From: a virus
Lineage: Duplodnaviria > Caudoviricetes
DNA: 64,000 nucleotides
Virus record (IMG/VR): IMGVR_UViG_3300029705_000041
Strand: one strand, 5' to 3'
Shown here in pieces: positions 2,747-56,673 of the stretch. A program made the translations under genes and the position numbers. The stretch's first letter is position 1. Every line of letters begins with the position of its first letter. A model generated the notes under the pieces. It did not search any database, had not been told where the DNA came from, and saw only the letters and a program-made list of their open reading frames with translations.

Positions 2747-3745
2747 TTACTTTCCTTGTTTATGTAACCTATATAAAAATACGATTACCTCTTGTCTTGT
2801 ACAATTATTATGTAATTTATAGTTTCCTGTATTATCACCATTTAAAATGCCTGTTGAGAGCGAATTATTAATAGCCTCTTTAGCCCATTCATCAGGAGTA
2901 TTATCTAATACCGGTACAACATCAGGAATCGTTTCTGAAGGTGTTTCAGGCTGTATAATAGGTATTTCTGGTTGTGGTGCTACAATTTCCTGTGCAGTAA
3001 CATAATTACCTGAAATATATCCAATACCAATATTAGGATAATTAACTTTATACCATCCATTATTTGTTTTTGCACAAATAACCACAACATCATTTCTTGC
3101 GTGTTGTCCGATACGTTCTGAACTTGTTGTTGGTTGTTTTCTTATATTTAATACACTTGCAGTAATAGTACCAGTTAAATTAACTGCTTCTTCTGTCCAT
3201 TCAAAAGGTTTTTCTACTAAACTATAATTTGGTCTGCCATAACCGGCAATTCTATTATAATTTAATTTATAAGATTTTTTTCTTACACAACCACCATTAG
3301 CAACAACTCCGCTTGATGAAGAAGTGTTTCCTTCAATAGTATATACATAAGTATTATCTACAGCATAAACAAGACCAGTATGACAAATTCCGCCACCACT
3401 ATTAGTAAAAAAGATTTGGTCTCCAACTTTCGGGGATTTGTACCATTCTCCATTATTTTTGAAATATCCAGAAGAATTGACTGTATAATCGTCAAATCTG
3501 TGAAGAATTTTTGTAGCCATTTCTGCTCCGAAAGCTTGCACAAAACACCAATCTACAAAGCAATCGCACCATGCAGCAGGATAATCCATTGTTGCAGGAT
3601 AAAGCTGATGCATCTCATAACCATATTTAGTATAATTAGCACTGCCAGCATTTGCAGTTTTATCATATAAAGATTTGGCGCTTGCTTTTTCAAGATAGCC
3701 GACTTCATTGCTTGCAATTGTTAAAAGTTTTTCTATTGCACTCAT
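2747..3745 (-). CDS. Endolysin: CHAP amidase + SH3b + C-terminal SLH-like domain
   Basis: AWCDCFV (Cys), HTGLV (His), TIEGNT; SH3b LNIR..P/GWYKV/GYIS; C-terminal WAKEAI...GILNG...TRQE. Confidence 0.9.
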   Translation of the reverse strand: MSAIEKLLTIASNEVGYLEKASAKSLYDKTANAGSANYTKYGYEMHQLYPATMDYPAAWCDCFVDWCFVQAFGAEMATKILHRFDDYTVNSSGYFKNNGEWYKSPKVGDQIFFTNSGGGICHTGLVYAVDNTYVYTIEGNTSSSSGVVANGGCVRKKSYKLNYNRIAGYGRPNYSLVEKPFEWTEEAVNLTGTITASVLNIRKQPTTSSERIGQHARNDVVVICAKTNNGWYKVNYPNIGIGYISGNYVTAQEIVAPQPEIPIIQPETPSETIPDVVPVLDNTPDEWAKEAINNSLSTGILNGDNTGNYKLHNNCTRQEVIVFLYRLHKQGK

Positions 3746-3759
3746 ATATAGCTACCTCC

Positions 3760-4416
3760 TTATTTTAAATTACTATATCTATTAAGAAATACTAAAACTT
3801 CTTGTCTTGTGCAAACATCATGAAGCTTTAAATTTCCTGTATCGTCACCTTTTAAAATACCGTTATTTTTCGCCCATTCAACCGCTTCTGTAGCCCAAGT
3901 ATCAGGTGTGTTATCTAATGTTATGTTACTCATAATAGTTTCCTCCTTAATAATGTCGAATTGGTTTAAATTATATGTTTCAATTAAATTGATTAATTTG
4001 TCTGCATATGTAGGGTCTGTTGCGTACCCTGCTGCATGAATAGCTTTACAAGCCTTTTTATAATCAGTTTCTCCAATAACATTTTTATATCTTGATAATC
4101 CGCAAAGTAATGCACTATGGTCATTAATGCTTTCTTCCCAACTGTCATAAGCTCTAAAAGAAGCATCAATTGTTACGAATGTAGAACCATCATAACATTC
4201 TTTGGTTTTTGCATTATAAACTTTGCCTTTCCAAGAAGTACCAGCTTTAATTCCAAACAAAGCTTTGCCAACAGTAGATAAAGAACTTTTTCCCCAACCA
4301 CTTTCTAATATCGCTTGTGCGATAGTTAAACTTGCCAAAACTCTAGTTTTCTTCATATCCTTTTGTGCTAATGTGCCAATTTGATTAATAAATTCCATTT
4401 GTGAATTACTAGCCAT
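3760..4416 (-). CDS. Endolysin: GH73 glucosaminidase + SLH-like domain
   Basis: IAQAILESGWG, LFGIKA, FRAYDSWEES, GYATDPTY motifs. Confidence 0.92.
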   Translation of the reverse strand: MASNSQMEFINQIGTLAQKDMKKTRVLASLTIAQAILESGWGKSSLSTVGKALFGIKAGTSWKGKVYNAKTKECYDGSTFVTIDASFRAYDSWEESINDHSALLCGLSRYKNVIGETDYKKACKAIHAAGYATDPTYADKLINLIETYNLNQFDIIKEETIMSNITLDNTPDTWATEAVEWAKNNGILKGDDTGNLKLHDVCTRQEVLVFLNRYSNLK

Positions 4417-5233: not shown

Positions 5234-6461
5234 TAATCAAACCTCCTCGCATATTAACTAATCTATATCCCATTAGTCTGTTTATATATTTACACATACT
5301 TTGTAATGTTTTTCTGTGTTTTACATATTTAAGGTGTGATAACCAAGATTGAAAAGAAGCATACATTTCTTCAATGGTGCGAACTCCATTTTTTATAAAG
5401 TTTATAAATTTCTTAATTTTTCTTCTCATTCTCACAATTCCTTTTCGTACAGGTCTGCGTATGATATTTCCATCTTTTGTGATGTTATATTTTGTTTTTA
5501 AGAATTTAAAACCACGTGAAGCCTTGACAATGTGTGTTTTCTTTGTATTAAACTTTAAGCCGAGTTTTTCAACAATTTCACACATACCAGCATATAGTTC
5601 TTTTAGAAACTCCTTATCATCTGATATAATAACACCATCATCCATATATCTTATATAGTGTTTTACACTCATTTTGTCTTTTATGTAATGGTCAAGGTCA
5701 TTAGGAACTATCAAAGCCATCATTTGAGAAATTTGACTTCCGAGACAAATTCCGACATCTTCTCCGTTTTTATAATAAGACTTAATTATCTTCATTATAA
5801 TATCATTTAAGCCATTGTTAGATATATACTTATCCAACACATATCTACAAGAAGAATGAGGAATACTATCAAAGAATGATTTAAAATCAAATGTTAGTAT
5901 ATAAAAATCTGTACCATATTCCCGAATTGCAGATTTTAAATGCGAATACATTCTTCTCCTTGCAAAATCAATTCCCTTATCCTTGGTACTTGCACCATTA
6001 TCATAAATTAAATTGTCTTTTGCCGAAGGAACTATTGCATTATCACATAAAACACGTTGTATAATTCTATCTTCGATTGTTATCGGAACGATAATCCTTT
6101 CTTTTCCTCTTTCATATAAAGATATTCTACTCGTATTTACAAGTTTAGGTAATTCTCCGTTTTCAATAACCTTAACTGTTGTGTACATATTTTGAATGGC
6201 ATATCTATTATATTTTTGAACGCTTCCTTTCCACATTACACTCTTATTACATTTATTTAATGCATCAACGAAATTTTGCATTTTAAAAATATTGTCAACA
6301 TTATATTTTTCAGCCTTTAGCTTTCGTTTCTCTAATTTTTTTGCTTTATCTCTGGCTATTCGAGCCTGTATTCTTTCTCTGTTATTTATGGTAATATCCA
6401 CCTCTGTTGTATATAAGTTAAATATAATATTCTCCGAATGGTTTATTTTATATATAGTCAT
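5223..6461 (-). CDS. DGR reverse transcriptase
   Basis: GKER.I, DRIIQR, DFKSFFDSIPH, GICLGSQISQ, YIRYMDD; adjacent TR and Avd; no maturase or endonuclease domain; start may be ATA at 6389. Confidence 0.95.
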   Translation of the reverse strand: MTIYKINHSENIIFNLYTTEVDITINNRERIQARIARDKAKKLEKRKLKAEKYNVDNIFKMQNFVDALNKCNKSVMWKGSVQKYNRYAIQNMYTTVKVIENGELPKLVNTSRISLYERGKERIIVPITIEDRIIQRVLCDNAIVPSAKDNLIYDNGASTKDKGIDFARRRMYSHLKSAIREYGTDFYILTFDFKSFFDSIPHSSCRYVLDKYISNNGLNDIIMKIIKSYYKNGEDVGICLGSQISQMMALIVPNDLDHYIKDKMSVKHYIRYMDDGVIISDDKEFLKELYAGMCEIVEKLGLKFNTKKTHIVKASRGFKFLKTKYNITKDGNIIRRPVRKGIVRMRRKIKKFINFIKNGVRTIEEMYASFQSWLSHLKYVKHRKTLQSMCKYINRLMGYRLVNMRGGLINVL

Positions 6462-6479
6462 TCAACCATGTGATTATGG

Positions 6480-6677
6480 GTATGAAAATTAAACTGACTA
6501 TCAAGTTTAATCCATGCAAGTAGCTTCAACCCAGCTTCATCGGACTGCTATTATAGCAGGACAATCTTAAAGCAGAAAGTCGCAATATTTACCCTTTCGG
6601 GAAGGACAAACACTCCTTCAAGTGATGTTGTTGAATATTCATTTTTCACCCTCATTTTGTGGTTACTGTCATCAAAT
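6480..6677 (-). ncRNA. Structured DGR spacer RNA between TR and RT
   Basis: Hairpins GAAGGA..TCCTTC (6601-6619), CCC-GAAA-GGG (6592-6601), ATTAAACT..AGTTTAAT (6488-6511). Confidence 0.5.
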
Positions 6678-6804
6678 GAATCAGGGGCAAACGCCATTAG
6701 CATTGCTGGCGTTGTTGTTGTTGTTGTTACCTGTGTTGTTGACATTGTAGAAGTTAGTCGTGTTGGTAGCATTCGGAGAACGCTCCCACCAGTTGTACGC
6801 ACGA
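6678..6804 (-). repeat. DGR template repeat (TR)
   Basis: 127-nt AAC-rich copy of the VR; all substitutions versus the VR fall at TR adenines (minus strand). Confidence 0.95.
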
Positions 6805-49391: not shown

Positions 49392-50834
49392 CTATAGATG
49401 AATGACCATATCCTTAAATGAAGATATAACACGATATGTTTTGTCATTCTTTGAAATTGCTTCTTTTAATTTTTCTGATAATTTCTTTTTACTTTCAGAT
49501 GAACCATGCACCAAAACTAATTTATTTGTTTTTAAAGAGCTACCATATTTAATCAAATCCTTATTATTTGCATGACTACTAAAAGTAGAAAGTGTAATAC
49601 AATCTGCTCTATTTGCAATCTGCTCCTTATTGATGCTTATAAATTTATGTTCTCTGTAGTTTTTTATTCTATACGATAAATAAGATGGATTATCTCCGGC
49701 ATAACCCGAAAATATAATCATACTATTTCTATCTTTTAAGTATTTCTTTATATAATTTACAATTCTTCCATTTGTACAAAAACCGGAAGAAGATATAATT
49801 ATCTTTGACTGTTGGTTAGCAACCCATAATTGAGATTCTTCTTTTTCTGAAACAAATTTAACATTCTCCCAATTACATATTGAATTCCATAAAATTAAAT
49901 CATCTTCTGATAGTAATGTAGAATATAGTTTACATATTTCACAACTTAATTTAGAATCTACTATAATTGGAATTGAAAAGTTTTCGTCATTCCCATAAAT
50001 TCCATATAGTGTTGTCAACAATTCTTGCGTTCTACTAAAACTAAAACATGGGAGTATTACACTACCATGTCTTTCGATAACTGTATTTATAGCGGCTGTC
50101 AGATGCTCAATATCAAAATTTCTTGATTTTTTGGTTTCTCTTTTTGTGTCTCCGTATGTAGATTCCATTATTACAACATCATTAAACATTTCGGGAATTT
50201 CAGTGTTCTCTAAATAATGATTTTGTGTATTTAATGCGCCAATATCAGAAGTATAAAGAATTTTCCTCTTTTTATTATCTGAATTTAAAATCAATTGTAA
50301 TTGTGCTGCTCCTAAACAATGTGAGTTTTTTAACCATTGAAAGCTTATACTATCATTTAATGTATATACATGATTGTAATTATCAAAAATTTCAATCATT
50401 TCCAAAGCTTTATATACATCCGATTCTTCATATAGTGGTTTATACTCTCTCTTATATTTACGAGATAATATTTTTGCTTCCTCTGTAACAATAAAACATG
50501 AATTAAGCAAAAGCGGTTTCATAACCATTGCTGTATTCTTTGTTGTAATTATTTTACCATTAAAACCCTCTTTTACAAGACGTGGGATTAATCCACAATG
50601 GTCTATGTGAGGATGTGCAACAAAAACAAAATCTATTTCTGAAGGTTTAAACTTAAATTTAGCTGAATTAATTTTATAAGAATCTAAATAACTATTACTC
50701 TGTGATTGATGTAAACCACACTCAAAAAGACATTGATAAATTCCAAATCGTACAAGGTATTGTGACCCTGTAACATCTTCTGCGGCTTTTCCAGTAAAAT
50801 ATATTCCGTCACTTTTCAATTTCTTTTTTGTCAT
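49392..50834 (-). CDS. Metallo-beta-lactamase beta-CASP ribonuclease
   Basis: VTGS, HPHIDH, SHCLG, SDIG, ESTYG, R.QEL, SSHA, LVHG. Confidence 0.9.
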   Translation of the reverse strand: MTKKKLKSDGIYFTGKAAEDVTGSQYLVRFGIYQCLFECGLHQSQSNSYLDSYKINSAKFKFKPSEIDFVFVAHPHIDHCGLIPRLVKEGFNGKIITTKNTAMVMKPLLLNSCFIVTEEAKILSRKYKREYKPLYEESDVYKALEMIEIFDNYNHVYTLNDSISFQWLKNSHCLGAAQLQLILNSDNKKRKILYTSDIGALNTQNHYLENTEIPEMFNDVVIMESTYGDTKRETKKSRNFDIEHLTAAINTVIERHGSVILPCFSFSRTQELLTTLYGIYGNDENFSIPIIVDSKLSCEICKLYSTLLSEDDLILWNSICNWENVKFVSEKEESQLWVANQQSKIIISSSGFCTNGRIVNYIKKYLKDRNSMIIFSGYAGDNPSYLSYRIKNYREHKFISINKEQIANRADCITLSTFSSHANNKDLIKYGSSLKTNKLVLVHGSSESKKKLSEKLKEAISKNDKTYRVISSFKDMVIHL

Positions 50835-51047: not shown

Positions 51048-51123
51048 TGGAGCTGATGGTGGGACTCGAACCCACAACCGACTGATTACAAGTCAGTTAC
51101 TCTACCAATTGAGCTACATCAGC
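51048..51123 (-). tRNA. tRNA-Thr(TGT)
   Basis: ACTGA-CT-TGT-AA-TCAGT, CCA. Confidence 0.95.
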
Positions 51124-51126
51124 ATA

Positions 51127-51203
51127 TGGTGACGCTAGCCAGAATCGAACTGGCATTGCATCCTTGAAAGGGATGTGTCCTAGACCGTTTAGACGATAGC
51201 GCC
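51127..51203 (-). tRNA. tRNA-Glu(TTC)
   Basis: CATCC-CT-TTC-AA-GGATG, CCA. Confidence 0.93.
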
Positions 51204-51206
51204 ATA

Positions 51207-51282
51207 TGGCTCCTCCAGCTGGACTTGAACCAGCGACATCATGATTAACAGTCATGCGCTCTACCGGCTGAGCTATAGAGGA
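51207..51282 (-). tRNA. tRNA-Asn(GTT)
   Basis: CATGA-CT-GTT-AA-TCATG, CCA. Confidence 0.95.
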
Positions 51283-51288
51283 ATATAG

Positions 51289-51364
51289 TGGCGGCTTGTG
51301 AGGGAATCGAACCCTCATCTTCGGAGAGACAATCCGATATACTTAGCCATTATACGAACAAGCC
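51289..51364 (-). tRNA. tRNA-Asp(GTC)
   Basis: TCGGA-TT-GTC-TC-TCCGA, CCA. Confidence 0.9.
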
Positions 51365-51369
51365 ATTTT

Positions 51370-51456
51370 TGGTGGGCAGGGTAGGATTTGAACCTACGAA
51401 GCCGTAAGGCAACAGATTTACAGTCTGCCCGCTTTGAGCCGCTTGCATACCTACCC
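51370..51456 (-). tRNA. tRNA-Tyr(GTA)
   Basis: GCAGA-CT-GTA-AA-TCTGT, long variable arm, CCA. Confidence 0.95.
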
Positions 51457-51461
51457 ATATA

Positions 51462-51929
51462 TAATAGCTGCTATATAGAAAACTGAAACCCTATCAATCC
51501 AATCAATTAGCAGTTTTAAATAATCATCGAAATGATTTAAACCATTATGTAAAAAATTTCTTTAAATTTTTTTGTTCATTTACTTGAAAAATGCACTTAA
51601 TAAGAATTTAATTCTTCTGTAGAGCGTTCTGCTGATTGTATGAATGATATAGTTTGCATTATTGATTTATGGAATTATCGTTGGATTGCAGATAGTTGGT
51701 CGTAACATATGAATGTAGGATGGCATTACTATTAGTACCTTCAAAAAATATCTATCCACCAAATATTTGATAATCACTATTTATAAATAATATGTTTCTA
51801 TTATATATTAAAAACATTATAAAATAATGTAGAATATTAGCTTATTCCGAACTGCACAGCGTTATACTTCATCTGTGCTTGAAGCGACTGAAATTAATAT
51901 TCGTTCAGTTCTCTATATAGCAGCTATTA
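51462..51929 (-). ncRNA. Large structured non-coding RNA, family unknown
   Basis: 26-bp closing helix (one G-U on the minus strand), many internal stems, no ORF, ends 5 nt before tRNA-Tyr. Confidence 0.6.
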
Positions 51930-52115
51930 CGGATATTAAGGAATCAGAAATCACTGGCATCTTTTATCTACAAAAGCAAGGTAAAGAAAATGATTGTATT
52001 TTTATATAAAAGTAATAAAGTGAAAATTTTAAATTTAAGATGCCAGTTCTATGTCTTTTTTTGTATAGAAGTTAATAGAAGGATGATTCCTATGAGCCGT
52101 AATTACGGATAATTA

Positions 52116-52736
52116 TTATTTTAATTTTGCAACACAATCTTCAAGACTATCGCCAATTTCAAATTTACTTTCAAAATCAACCATAGTTTCAAGTTGCATT
52201 ACATCTATAGTTGTTGAGGTTTCATCTAATTCTTTTCGGAGTTTGCTTGCAATAGCTTTTACCTTATTTCTATCAAAATCAATAGTTGTAACCTCTTTTA
52301 TATCATAACAATATGTAACCTGATTTCCTTCTTCGTTGAATTTAACTGAACGACCAGAAAGGATATTTTCTTTTGGTTTGATATTTGCCATATTTAAAAG
52401 TCTCTGCAATAATTCACGCTTACGATTATTTATGGTTATCATACCGTCAAAATCTTTTTTGTCCTGGTGTTTTGCTTTATTAATAGCAGTTGTAAGATTT
52501 TCCATTTCAGCCTGTACAGTGCAAACGAAATCAATTAAATCGTTTATCGAAAAATCGCACTCCATACGTTTTGGCTTTGTAATAGTTTCATCTTCTGCTT
52601 CTGAATACACCTTTTTTCTCATGTGTTCCTGTGTAGAAACTGTAACATTATCTGAATAACCCAAAATTGATAAAGCTTCATCAAACAAAGATTTCAGATA
52701 ATTTTGTAATTCAAAACTTTTCTTTAACGTAATCAT
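52116..52736 (-). CDS. Helical-hairpin/coiled-coil protein upstream of the structured RNA
   Basis: AAGGAG RBS; LK..F..QN.L, FN.EGNQV.Y.YD, TTIDFDRN motifs. Confidence 0.8.
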   Translation of the reverse strand: MITLKKSFELQNYLKSLFDEALSILGYSDNVTVSTQEHMRKKVYSEAEDETITKPKRMECDFSINDLIDFVCTVQAEMENLTTAINKAKHQDKKDFDGMITINNRKRELLQRLLNMANIKPKENILSGRSVKFNEEGNQVTYCYDIKEVTTIDFDRNKVKAIASKLRKELDETSTTIDVMQLETMVDFESKFEIGDSLEDCVAKLK

Positions 52737-52790
52737 CGACTAATTTCTCCTTTTAAACTAATTATTTTGTTTTACTTTTCTTTATTATTA

Positions 52791-52828
52791 CGCACTAGGC
52801 ATAACATCATAATGCCATGCCTAATACG
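52791..52828 (-). promoter_or_regulatory. 17-bp RNA hairpin in the leader of the 206-aa gene
   Basis: Fully paired only on the minus strand (four G-U pairs). Confidence 0.55.
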
Positions 52829-52999
52829 CTCACACAAAGAAAAGAGAAAGATAAAGAAATGAGAATTAAAGGGATTTTTTCTTTTTATATTCCCTTCATA
52901 TAGAAAAATTTGTGTTTTTTTGATGCCTTTTTAAACCCTCAAAGTAGGAGAGGTTAAAAGCGATAAATAAAATTTATCTCAAAATTGTGCTGTCCAAAT

Positions 53000-53890
53000 T
53001 TATTTACTTTCATGCTCTTGTTTGTTTCTATAATATCGTTCAAGTTCTTTTTCTGCTTTATATTTTTTACGATACTTGATATAACAAGTCGGACACCTAT
53101 TACTTTGGTGGTCTTTTGAATTTGTCTCATATACCAAACCACAATCAACGCAAACAATTGTTTTTGTTTCCTGGGGAGTATATCCGGCACAAGCTGAACA
53201 ATATTTTTTTGTACCAGCTTTATTATTGCGGATTAAAATACCGCAATCTTGACAACGAATAAAATTTCCGTTTTCAGTAAATTTTAAATATTCATATCCA
53301 AGCTCTCTAAAGTCTGATATAAATAACACTTTTTCACTTTCATCATTTATAAATGTTACCCTGCTACTTAAATTATCATTTTTTTTAGGAAACTCTAGTA
53401 AGTTAATCTGATTAAGCATTCCAAAACGCTCATAACGATTTACTACACTACAAGAAATTCTAGCAAGACTAAAAATCTCTTTGGCATCAGTGTTTACCCA
53501 GCCTTGATTTTGCGGATTCTTTATATTGTTTAATTTGGCAAGACAAAGCATTGTAAAAGCAAGTCGTTCTAAAACCTTGTTGTGTATGTTTTGTATTGTT
53601 TCTAATTCTGCTTTTGTAATCCAAATACCATCTATTTCAAACAAAGTGAACTTTCCGGCATTAGCCGCTAATTTTTCTATATTTTCATCCCAACTTGATT
53701 TATTACTTGAATAGTGTGGGTAATACCTATTCATGTAATCTATAAGTAAATCTGTAATTTTCTTTTTTCTATATCCATAACAATGATAATAATATTTAGC
53801 CAGGACTGACAACGTAATAAATGGCTTATTATTAACTGTTTTACTTTTTAAACATTCTTCTGCATACTCTTTTTCATTTAATATAATCAT
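53000..53890 (-). CDS. Zn-finger protein, putative transcription factor coupled to the phage RNAP
   Basis: Overlaps the RNAP stop; four C-terminal CxxC pairs. Confidence 0.65.
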   Translation of the reverse strand: MIILNEKEYAEECLKSKTVNNKPFITLSVLAKYYYHCYGYRKKKITDLLIDYMNRYYPHYSSNKSSWDENIEKLAANAGKFTLFEIDGIWITKAELETIQNIHNKVLERLAFTMLCLAKLNNIKNPQNQGWVNTDAKEIFSLARISCSVVNRYERFGMLNQINLLEFPKKNDNLSSRVTFINDESEKVLFISDFRELGYEYLKFTENGNFIRCQDCGILIRNNKAGTKKYCSACAGYTPQETKTIVCVDCGLVYETNSKDHQSNRCPTCYIKYRKKYKAEKELERYYRNKQEHESK

Positions 53891-56673
53891 ACGTTGGCAT
53901 CACCACCAATCTCCTTTTCGCACATAGTGAAATATTCTCCGCAATACTCAAAACTGTTTGGTTCGTTTTTGTCTGTTTTTTGAGGATAATATATTTTGTG
54001 ATTATTATTCTTTAGTAAATTATCTAAAATTACATTGCCACATACATCCCACGCAAACTGTTTTGTTTTTTCCGCTTTATATGATATATCTAACACAATA
54101 TCACATAATTCACGTTCATTAGTACAAACTTCTTCGCATTCACGTTTAAATCTGTCTACAAACATAGTTCGTTGTTGCCAACATTCAAATGCATCCATTT
54201 TTTCGGTACGTTTTCTTTGTTGAAACTTATCAATATTCCTTTGATAATCTTCATATATTTTGAGGACACTTTCGTAATTTCTTCTGCTGTACTCAACATG
54301 ACTTTTAAGGATATTATAATCAAATTCCGGCTGTTCATATTTTTTTGAAAGATAACTATTGAATTCTTTTTCAAATATCCAACATATACGATTTACAACA
54401 CACGTATTATATCCAACAGGTATAAATCTTTCATAATAATCTAAATAATTAATCATATCCTGTGTTTTTGGTTCGTAATTATATAAATCTTGAACGCTAT
54501 GTATTCCATAAGAACTAAATCTCATTATTGCACCATAATCACTATTTTTCATATATGTATTATTTTTAGTTCTAAGAGCTGGATATACATATGTCATAAA
54601 ATATGGTTTATTTGCTGCAACGATTTTTTGATTAAATTCTTTTTTCTTGATTTCTTCTGGAGTATCATCATCTTTAATCATATTATCTCTCATACTATAC
54701 CAATATGCCGGCATTGGTTTTGCGATTATTCCCTTGGCTCTATCAATTGTGTTTTGCTGATATAACTGACCACACATGATTCTATAGGCAAGTGTTTCAT
54801 ACTCCTTTGAACCTGGTTCAAATCCTGCTTGAACTTCAATCATACTTGTAACATGATTGGTTACTGTGCCTATATCATCATTAAAAGCTAACTTATTAGC
54901 TTGAATAATATCTTCTTCATTAGCAATCTTCTTTTCAGCTTTTCGTTGCATACAAACGATGGTGGGGGAGTTAAGAGTTCTTTTTACAATAATTGGATTA
55001 TCGGTGTCCATATTTGTATCTCCATCTTTGTCGGCACCATTCATTGCATCACAAGCTGTGTCCCATGCATTAAGTATAGCAGCAGTAGAAATATATTGAT
55101 ACCAATGTGATGTTTGCTCATTATTGCATAACTTCATTTTACGAATATTATTATGACAAGTCATTGGCGCACGAAAACAAGCTAATTCAGTAGAACCTTT
55201 ATCAATCCAATATTTATGATATATTTCTCCAGCTTTTAATAATCCAGTAACTTCTAAACCAAACATACTTTGAGCCAAAGCATAAGGGTCTCCGGAAATC
55301 ATTGCAAAGTTAGCGTTTACTTTTATTGCACCACGTTTTGCCATTTCTATTCGCTTTACAATCATATTCCAAATCTTCCGGCGAATAAATGGGTCGTTAA
55401 TCATTCGTTTGTCAATCATCAATGCTCTTACACAATAATCAAAAGTATCATTAAACGCATTTTCATCATTTAAACCAAAGCCAGCTAAAAATACAAGACT
55501 TCTTCGATAATCCATTCCTAAAACACCTTTAATCTCATCTATTGTCGGATTACATAATTCTTGTAATTCTTCATCAGTAAAATTGTAGCTTTGTAAAAAT
55601 TGATAATTTGTATATCTAACATTTTCTAATTCTTCTGGCGTGGTTTTTGGAGTCGAAAATTGATAATGGTTTTCTTGGCAATTTCTATAATAATCTTCCC
55701 AACTCTCATAACTATCCCAGAGTTTTAACATAGAAACTGTAAGAATGACTTCTGCATCTCTAATATCTCTTTTATCGCCCCATGCATCAATTATCTCAAA
55801 AGTTCCTGCAATTTTTTCTGCAAATTCTATGAAATCAAATGTGTAAATCATACCCTTAGTCCATGCATAACGTGTATTCATACCCGAAATAACTTTTGAG
55901 TCATCACCGGTTAAATATCCATTTACTTTCTTAGAGTAAGAGGGAAGCATAAGACCATATCCATCCGAATCATTATGCTCAATTTCAAAATCTTTTATTT
56001 TTGTCATTATAGGTTCGCCTTCGGCTTCATCATTTATCATAATGACATCATCTTTAAAAAATGTTATACAATCATTAACCACAATAATTCCTTTAGGTTC
56101 AGGGATAGGAGTAGAGCCAGAACAAATCAGAGCTTGATATGCTTCTAGTTTTGCCGGTACCACCGGAATATCTTTGTTTCGTCCGTTGTCTAATCTCTTT
56201 TTTAATTCGGGATATAATTGTTCATTAACATAAACAATTGTTGAATTTTTTATGCCACCATTCGTTCCTAGAAATCGTTTATACTTAATACCATTAATAG
56301 TAAAGCCTTTATTAGCTCTATCATAATCTGAATTACTATCCATAATAATGCAGACATAATCCTTTTGAAACTGAAGGTTATATAGATTTTCGTATAAAGC
56401 CTTTATAATCATTTTAGTTTCACGGCTCTTAGGTTTCTTTTTTTCATATTTAATTTTTTTCTTTATATCTTTAACTTTGCCATTTATATCAGAAATTCCA
56501 TTAAGCTCATCTATAAATCTTAAAAGTTGACTATCATTTAAAGAAACAATATCTTCCGGATAATCACGCATAGCAACTTCTAATGGCAAAGATAGATTCC
56601 AATTTGCTTTCTTCAATCTTTTACTATGTAGTTTATATATAAACTTTAGATAGCTTTTTTGCTCCATTCGCAT
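53887..56673 (-). CDS. yonO: YonO-like single-subunit RNA polymerase
   Basis: NGADKDGD catalytic motif, DGYG, R...KG, FRAP; SPbeta-like context. Confidence 0.88.
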   Translation of the reverse strand: MRMEQKSYLKFIYKLHSKRLKKANWNLSLPLEVAMRDYPEDIVSLNDSQLLRFIDELNGISDINGKVKDIKKKIKYEKKKPKSRETKMIIKALYENLYNLQFQKDYVCIIMDSNSDYDRANKGFTINGIKYKRFLGTNGGIKNSTIVYVNEQLYPELKKRLDNGRNKDIPVVPAKLEAYQALICSGSTPIPEPKGIIVVNDCITFFKDDVIMINDEAEGEPIMTKIKDFEIEHNDSDGYGLMLPSYSKKVNGYLTGDDSKVISGMNTRYAWTKGMIYTFDFIEFAEKIAGTFEIIDAWGDKRDIRDAEVILTVSMLKLWDSYESWEDYYRNCQENHYQFSTPKTTPEELENVRYTNYQFLQSYNFTDEELQELCNPTIDEIKGVLGMDYRRSLVFLAGFGLNDENAFNDTFDYCVRALMIDKRMINDPFIRRKIWNMIVKRIEMAKRGAIKVNANFAMISGDPYALAQSMFGLEVTGLLKAGEIYHKYWIDKGSTELACFRAPMTCHNNIRKMKLCNNEQTSHWYQYISTAAILNAWDTACDAMNGADKDGDTNMDTDNPIIVKRTLNSPTIVCMQRKAEKKIANEEDIIQANKLAFNDDIGTVTNHVTSMIEVQAGFEPGSKEYETLAYRIMCGQLYQQNTIDRAKGIIAKPMPAYWYSMRDNMIKDDDTPEEIKKKEFNQKIVAANKPYFMTYVYPALRTKNNTYMKNSDYGAIMRFSSYGIHSVQDLYNYEPKTQDMINYLDYYERFIPVGYNTCVVNRICWIFEKEFNSYLSKKYEQPEFDYNILKSHVEYSRRNYESVLKIYEDYQRNIDKFQQRKRTEKMDAFECWQQRTMFVDRFKRECEEVCTNERELCDIVLDISYKAEKTKQFAWDVCGNVILDNLLKNNNHKIYYPQKTDKNEPNSFEYCGEYFTMCEKEIGGDANV

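Follow-up and report, generated by a model that had tools for sequence, protein, structure and literature searches.

A 64,000-nucleotide stretch of phage DNA (Duplodnaviria; Caudoviricetes; IMG/VR record IMGVR_UViG_3300029705_000041), referred to here as the window, encodes on its minus strand a structured RNA of ca. 470 nucleotides (nt) at 51461..51930, between the minus-strand gene for an acidic, helical protein of 206 amino acids (aa; 52116..52736) and an array of five tRNA genes. With moderate confidence, we assign this RNA to a new family of large non-coding RNAs (ncRNAs) with elaborate folds. In this reading, it makes up a fixed module of two parts with the small protein gene directly upstream, is cut from the operon transcript, and acts as a ribonucleoprotein. 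The RNA has a defined architecture and is specific to one strand, its linkage to the protein gene is obligate, and the module is both autonomous and patchily distributed – it is carried by phages of gut Clostridia and, standing alone as a cassette, by a few bacterial chromosomes.

The two ends of the RNA are tied together by a long closing helix, P1. A first-pass annotation of the window, made from the sequence without database searches, had described a 26-bp helix here with a single G-U pair on the minus strand; this was borne out, and with G-U pairs allowed the helix extends to an uninterrupted 27 bp (51904..51930 with 51461..51487). Its one internal mismatch is, on the minus strand, a G in the 5' arm opposite a U in the 3' arm, and its non-Watson-Crick pairs are all G-U on the transcribed strand. 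As an inverted repeat, it reaches 84% complementarity over arms of 37 nt (51462-51498 and 51893-51929), with a core match of 25 nt, with one mismatch, that is unique in the window and expected by chance 0.00 times.

Inside P1, across an internal loop of 4 nt on each strand, is a second helix, P2 (51885..51899 with 51492..51505), which has 13 pairs and one bulged U. The block of the RNA that is most conserved in sequence (AAUUGAUUGGAUUGAUA) contains the 3' strand of P2. A long-range pairing of 51491-51502 with 51681-51695 had been proposed earlier, but relatives keep the 3' segment unchanged and do not keep the middle segment; that pairing is replaced by P2 and the pseudoknot described next, the same 3' segment pairing with the 5' strand of P2. 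About 45 nt inside the RNA is a compact H-type pseudoknot (51854..51885), consisting of stem 1 (51880-51884 with 51867-51871), stem 2 (51873-51878 with 51854-51859), two linkers of 1 nt each, and an A-rich loop that is conserved (AUAACG). Stem 2 is the hairpin that had been noted at 51854-51878, which is real and has full compensatory support; RNAalifold on four sequences gave both it and P2.

The rest of the interior is more loosely defined. A hairpin 3' of the pseudoknot (51831..51848; GAAUA/UAUUC), as read off the alignments, has the stem GGUAU/AUAUC in one relative (L001) and other forms elsewhere. The central block at 51629..51673 is G-poor and rich in C, A and U, is partly conserved in sequence in the alignment, and is probably single-stranded. 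A composition profile of 75 representatives shows the same tendency, with G dropping to 0.14-0.16 and C climbing to 0.24-0.26 at 44-64% of the length. Toward the 3' side, the UUCG-capped hairpin that had been predicted at 51522..51537 is present, as judged from its sequence and one compensatory change in a relative (AUCAU/AUGAU to AUCAC/GUGAU in L133). An A/U hairpin predicted at 51551-51572 can form but has no comparative support. Homologous elements in 102 distinct relatives range from 291 to 533 nt, with a median of 447 nt.

The folding energy of the whole element is low on both strands (z −4.65 on the minus strand and −4.77 on the plus strand). This low energy derives entirely from the closing helix, so the case for a structured RNA rests on comparative evidence. 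A like helix, with arms ca. 400 nt apart, is present in five IMG/VR contigs coding for relatives of the 206-aa protein; base differences in it are compensated, and the only mismatches in its arms are G-U on the transcript. Homologues were then collected from downstream of the protein family, as the first-pass annotation had advised, and they covary strongly. In a count over 16 sequences, 93.2% of the cells were paired, versus 35-44% when the partners were slid; 36 of 51 pairs had compensatory changes on both sides, and none of 500 shuffles matched the observed values. P1 was paired in 95.6% of cells with both-side changes in 18 of 27 pairs, and P2 in 84% of cells with both-side changes in 9 of 13 pairs. 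The sequence of the closing helix differs completely between clades.

In the pseudoknot, this count gave 98.8% of cells paired in stem 1, with 3 of 5 pairs changed on both sides, and 97.9% in stem 2, with all 6 pairs changed on both sides. Stem 1 covaries independently, taking the forms GCUUC/GAAGU, GGUUC/GAACU, GUUUC/GAAAU and GCUUU/AAAGU. At the corresponding position, a pseudoknot scoring at least 10.5 was found in 60 of 75 representatives, versus 13 of 225 shuffles. Across the family as a whole, the central tract did not pair with the conserved 3' block more than in shuffles. No consistent open reading frame (ORF) was found inside the element on either strand of the 16 relatives, in agreement with the earlier reading of the window. 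Longer than 300 nt, non-coding, present in many genomes, and built of covarying helices with a pseudoknot, the RNA is of the kind of the large ornate ncRNAs OLE, GOLLD, ROOL and HEARO.

The closing helix could instead belong to an element that works as DNA, such as an invertible switch, a miniature inverted-repeat transposable element (MITE), a packaging site or a replication origin. A near-perfect inverted repeat of 25 nt with arms ca. 400 bp apart, and folding energies that are equal on both strands, speak for this. The strand of the G-U pairs speaks against it. In the window and in three relatives (L001, L002 and L004), every mismatch in the arms is G-U when read on the transcribed strand, 80 cells are G-U and 5 are A-C, and pairing was stronger on the gene strand than on its complement at 85 loci versus 14. 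P2 is itself strand-specific, since several of its G-U pairs are invariant, and the pseudoknot stems likewise hold strand-specific G-U pairs while covarying. The element is also present in a single copy per window and genome, in a fixed orientation to the upstream gene, with no recombinase or transposase among its constant neighbours. A function at the DNA level is therefore considered very improbable.

The RNA and the protein gene are linked in both directions. A set of 116 loci was gathered through protein homology from Logan/ENA contigs, IMG/VR and GTDB genomes. A long closing stem scoring above every shuffled control follows the gene in 112 of them and begins a median of 40 nt past the stop codon. 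In the reverse direction, a DNA pattern built only from the pseudoknot matched 89 IMG/VR stretches, and the gene was directly upstream on the same strand in all 66 that had enough upstream DNA, with 62-123 nt between the stop codon and the pseudoknot. Because this pseudoknot-only search gave the gene upstream in 66 of 66 cases, the defining partner of the RNA is the protein gene and not the tRNA array. The RNA and the protein gene probably work as one unit.

The first-pass annotation had placed the RNA at the head of the tRNA array. In the window this is so – tRNA-Tyr (51370..51456) closely follows P1, though after a gap of 4 nt and not 5 – but tRNAs are not a constant partner. Only about 20 of 60 lineages have tRNAs directly after the RNA, and about half have no tRNA within 2 kb. 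In the clade of the window and a few others, a tRNA begins 3-9 nt after the RNA, and often the first is tRNA-Tyr. The idea that RNase P releases the 3' end of the RNA is likewise plausible in the window but is not a feature of the family. Across the family, a tRNA, an intrinsic terminator, or the ribosome-binding site of the next gene is found within a few nt downstream of P1, which is consistent with transcription through the element followed by processing or termination.

Such constant placement could also mean that the RNA is a cis-acting 3' untranslated region (UTR) that controls the stability or translation of its own mRNA, for example through feedback by the protein, with no role in trans. 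It is always on the same transcript and follows right after the stop codon, a terminator follows at once in many lineages, and in the window a leader hairpin precedes the 206-aa gene as well. For a bacterial 3' UTR, however, a conserved pseudoknot and a rod of 40 bp in some 450 nt would be unusual in their complexity, and in a third of the lineages the RNA sits between the gene and tRNAs or further ORFs. A helix that clamps the ends is better suited to an excised, stable RNA. We regard a purely cis-acting role as distinctly unlikely.

In two Lachnospiraceae chromosomes the gene and the RNA sit amid housekeeping genes, at one site between pyrD and a TIR/TPR gene pair and at the other between purE and a peptidase gene, and only 2 of 301 genomes of Lachnospiraceae carry the protein. 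One chromosomal copy (in genome G002) is an insertion of 1562 bp comprising a promoter and leader, the ORF, the RNA and a terminator. Two genomes of a single genus share the cassette and its site; in at least six others of this genus the site is empty, and ca. 20-30 bp lie between the flanking genes. The chromosomal insertion has no clear target duplication or terminal repeats. Since the solo copy is a complete unit from promoter to terminator and the sister genomes have empty sites, the module is an accessory cassette that is autonomous and independent of phage genes. Cultured carriers of solo copies include Intestinibacter bartlettii N19 and Lachnospiraceae bacterium 48-33. At L356:10271-11679 (genome G003), a TIR-domain gene and a TPR gene that resemble a defence-type pair lie directly beside the solo cassette.

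A self-contained cassette of a protein and an RNA, patchily present on phages, plasmids and chromosomes, is also the form of type III toxin-antitoxin systems such as ToxIN and AbiQ. If the module were a type III-like toxin-antitoxin or an abortive-infection pair, with the RNA neutralising the protein, this would account for a two-part cassette with its own promoter and terminator that is patchy among sister species and also found on phages, and one chromosomal copy adjoins TIR and TPR genes. In the known systems, though, a tandem-repeat RNA lies upstream of an endoribonuclease, whereas in this module one complex RNA follows the gene of an acidic helical protein. Tandem Repeats Finder gave only a trivial A/T repeat of 2 x 10 nt, and no ToxN/AbiQ-type endoribonuclease was matched in Pfam, PADLOC, PHROGs or NCBIfam. 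A clamped, stable RNA is also the opposite of a labile antitoxin. The module is thus quite improbable as a toxin-antitoxin pair.

No known RNA family matches the element. Infernal searches with Rfam 15 found no match at window positions 51300-52200 even at E ≤ 10, no match to the element in a search of the whole window at E ≤ 0.05, and no match to the element in the homologous region of 14 diverse relatives at E ≤ 1. Searches with blastn against GenBank phages and for the exact inverted repeat in IMG/VR returned nothing; a pattern search with the short 3' motif returned mostly chance matches, and a metagenome pattern scan returned only three, all of them chance matches within coding sequence. 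No description of the RNA or of the RNA-protein module was found in the literature. The suggestion of the first-pass annotation – a structured minus-strand ncRNA, possibly new, that could not be assigned to ROOL, GOLLD, transfer-messenger RNA (tmRNA), RNase P RNA or an intron – agrees with these Infernal results and with the strong covariation.

The RNA could still be a very divergent member of one of the known classes – tmRNA, RNase P RNA, GOLLD, ROOL, or a group I or II intron. Its closing helices followed by a pseudoknot recall tmRNA and RNase P RNA, and it is similar in size to both. The Rfam results count against such kinship, which is highly improbable. The GOLLD model (RF02032) is sensitive in this phage group. 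In one relative (L164), that model found GOLLD at 3587-4021 (89 bits, E 9e-22, below the gathering score), among tRNAs and ca. 500 nt downstream of the homologous RNA; from this placement, GOLLD is a separate neighbour and not a relative. The ROOL model (RF03087) matched neither the window nor the 14 relatives, and the RNase P RNA models matched neither positions 51300-52200 nor the 14 relatives. ARAGORN found no tmRNA, the ends form a plain 27-bp helix with no tRNA-like domain, and there is no conserved open frame in the 16 relatives that could be a tag frame.

The module resembles tmRNA and its partner SmpB in form. Both systems have an RNA of ca. 350-450 nt with paired ends and a long helix leading into a first H-type pseudoknot, and both have a small dedicated protein partner. 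They differ in that the window RNA has no acceptor/T-arm domain or tag ORF, and its partner is helical with no match to SmpB or any Pfam family. Bacterial Y RNAs with Rsr (Ro), in RNA-repair operons with RtcB, also offer a parallel, in that the RNA ends form a long stem, the protein is adjacent, RNA ligase and repair genes are near, and they are found in phages. However, Y RNAs are ca. 100-130 nt, and Ro is a protein of ca. 500 aa with a HEAT ring and a vWA domain; neither resembles the module. The stable RNAs C and D of phage T4 are non-tRNA species of unknown function that are co-transcribed with the phage tRNA array and freed by tRNA-processing enzymes. They are only ca. 120-140 nt, have no partner protein, and have no similarity to the window RNA.

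ROOL and GOLLD are close parallels – large (400-800 nt), pseudoknotted RNAs of unknown function, borne by phages that infect Firmicutes and bacteria of the gut or rumen, and often amid tRNA clusters. The window RNA differs in having no sequence or structure match to them, in being tied to one protein gene, and in also occurring as a solo chromosomal cassette. No constant protein partner is known for ROOL or GOLLD. It is possible that the window RNA is a particle of the same kind, in which the RNA self-assembles and the protein gene is linked only for expression or to help assembly. The RNA is large, ornate, phage-borne and often beside tRNAs, it shares an island with GOLLD in L164, and the partner protein is acidic with no RNA-binding fold. 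ROOL and GOLLD are described as protein-free homo-oligomers (PMC12286853). Against this, the linkage holds completely whether one starts from the RNA or from the protein, the order is fixed and the two lie tens of nt apart, and the solo cassettes keep this as well. A particle made of RNA only is, on this evidence, unlikely.

The protein, like the RNA, was matched to no named family. Its family comprises 941 clusters at 50% identity, and an AlphaFold2 model of the 206-aa protein has a predicted local distance difference test (pLDDT) score of 92, with four long helices and long beta-hairpins. Matches in Pfam, PHROGs, PADLOC and NCBIfam did not go beyond coiled-coil noise, Foldseek gave no match below E 0.001 in PDB and BFVD, and the ESM Atlas gave only unnamed viral clusters. 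No match was found with tblastn for three family members against GenBank phages or for one family member against the PLSDB plasmids. The best VIA-align match, 3kdq_A (Z 10.4, unknown function), is within the noise range for helical proteins. A sequence-profile match in PDB to virion proteins of phage Goslar (E 0.1) was marginal and is not trusted.

A two-part module acting as a ribonucleoprotein would work as follows. The ORF and then the RNA would be made as a single transcript; no promoter or terminator signals were found in the window between the 206-aa gene, the RNA and the tRNAs, and from this we infer co-transcription. By covariation and composition, the RNA folds into a rod of stacked P1 (27 bp) and P2 (13 bp) that ties its ends, with the pseudoknot atop the rod and, beyond it, ca. 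300 nt of more variable hairpins with the G-poor central tract. The rod would probably shield both RNA ends from exonucleases and serve as an RNase III site, for which it is long enough, so that cleavage would free the RNA from the upstream mRNA and the downstream sequence. In the window only, a cut by RNase P at tRNA-Tyr, 4 nt downstream, may trim the 3' side. Most likely, the freed RNA would then act jointly with the co-expressed protein.

A number of observations weigh against this reading. The interior of the RNA alone folds no better than shuffles (z −0.17 and −0.36) and aligns poorly across relatives, and the support for P2 is modest across the whole family. In the clade of L143 and a few others, a conserved AAUUGRUUG block on the 3' side can pair with a central CAAYCA, the two changing in step, which hints at alternative folds and a possible switch. 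Three close relatives with 84% protein identity (L351, at 2267-2622, L352 and L353) have a shortened RNA of 356 nt that lacks the outer part of P1 and ca. 100 nt of the interior and has no tRNA after it; this may be a decaying or a minimal form. The protein is acidic (median isoelectric point 5.2, net charge −6), and no recognisable RNA-binding fold was found in it by Foldseek against PDB and BFVD or by VIA-align, nor any defence family by PADLOC. Finally, the transcript, its ends and its processing are what we infer, and it is solely the neighbourhood and the patchy distribution that suggest a role in conflict.

That role is a guess – that the module takes part in a conflict between phage and host over RNA or tRNA. 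It is suggested by the patchy distribution together with a location in phage regions where genes for tRNAs, RNA ligases, polynucleotide kinase-phosphatase and RNases abound. The variable neighbours on phage contigs include a YonO-like polymerase (25 loci), a Pnkp-Rnl1 fusion (9) and an Rnl2-like ligase (6), and further Metallophos proteins, YunG-like proteins and a beta-CASP RNase. In three bacterial carriers, a search for PF05183 gave no match, and its control likewise matched nowhere. No reverse transcriptase family, as a retron would have, was found among those neighbour representatives, a part of all the neighbours, that were scanned against Pfam. Going further, the 206-aa protein and the 450-nt RNA could be a previously unknown ribonucleoprotein machine – an autonomous mobile cassette of bacteria and large phages that acts on RNA, as a decoy, scaffold or sensor in conflict over tRNA, unlike any known class of defence, counter-defence or toxin-antitoxin system. 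This is a tentative proposal, and we hold it to be less likely than not.

Large RNAs whose structure has many covarying helices are rare, and nearly all such classes for which the function has been solved do fundamental jobs, as in ribosomes, RNase P, tmRNA, introns and guide RNAs. The present class is widespread (ca. 940 clusters of the partner protein), yet both the RNA and the protein are absent from Rfam, Pfam, PHROGs and NCBIfam. Because the RNA has a dedicated protein and solo copies are present in cultured bacteria, its function can be tested directly by genetics and pull-downs, and the module may reveal how gut phages and Clostridia handle or contest RNA.

The window itself has a G+C content of ca. 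31% and resembles a large AT-rich phage. On the minus strand, the order of genes is a YonO-like single-subunit RNA polymerase (928 aa, 53887-56673; PF05183), a 296-aa protein, the 206-aa protein, 659 nt free of ORFs, five tRNAs (Tyr, Asp, Asn, Glu and Thr; 51048-51456), a beta-CASP/RMMBL RNase (480 aa, 49392-50834) and ClpP, so that the polymerase and the RNase lie on either side of the module and its tRNAs. The leader of the 206-aa gene has a 13-bp hairpin with three G-U pairs (52790-52829, minus strand). Between the stop codon of this gene and P1 is a spacer of 185 nt (51931..52115, minus strand), which is bounded by copies of UAUCCGUAAU (direct repeat D1) at 51926-51935 and 52102-52111 and has a hairpin (I2) with 21-nt arms, 51953-51973 with 52027-52047. 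The spacer looks like a lineage-specific insertion, because spacers in close relatives range from 7 to 186 nt.

Two further RNA motifs were found by the searches. One is a candidate HDV-like ribozyme (RF02682, E 0.02) at L225:3194-3256, ca. 75 nt after the homologous RNA of that contig, which could set the 3' end of the RNA by self-cleavage. The other is an RT-2 RNA motif (RF03077, 47.6 bits, above the gathering score) at 6413-6680 on the minus strand of the window. It is the only motif there associated with reverse transcriptases (RT), and it lies 45 kb from the element.
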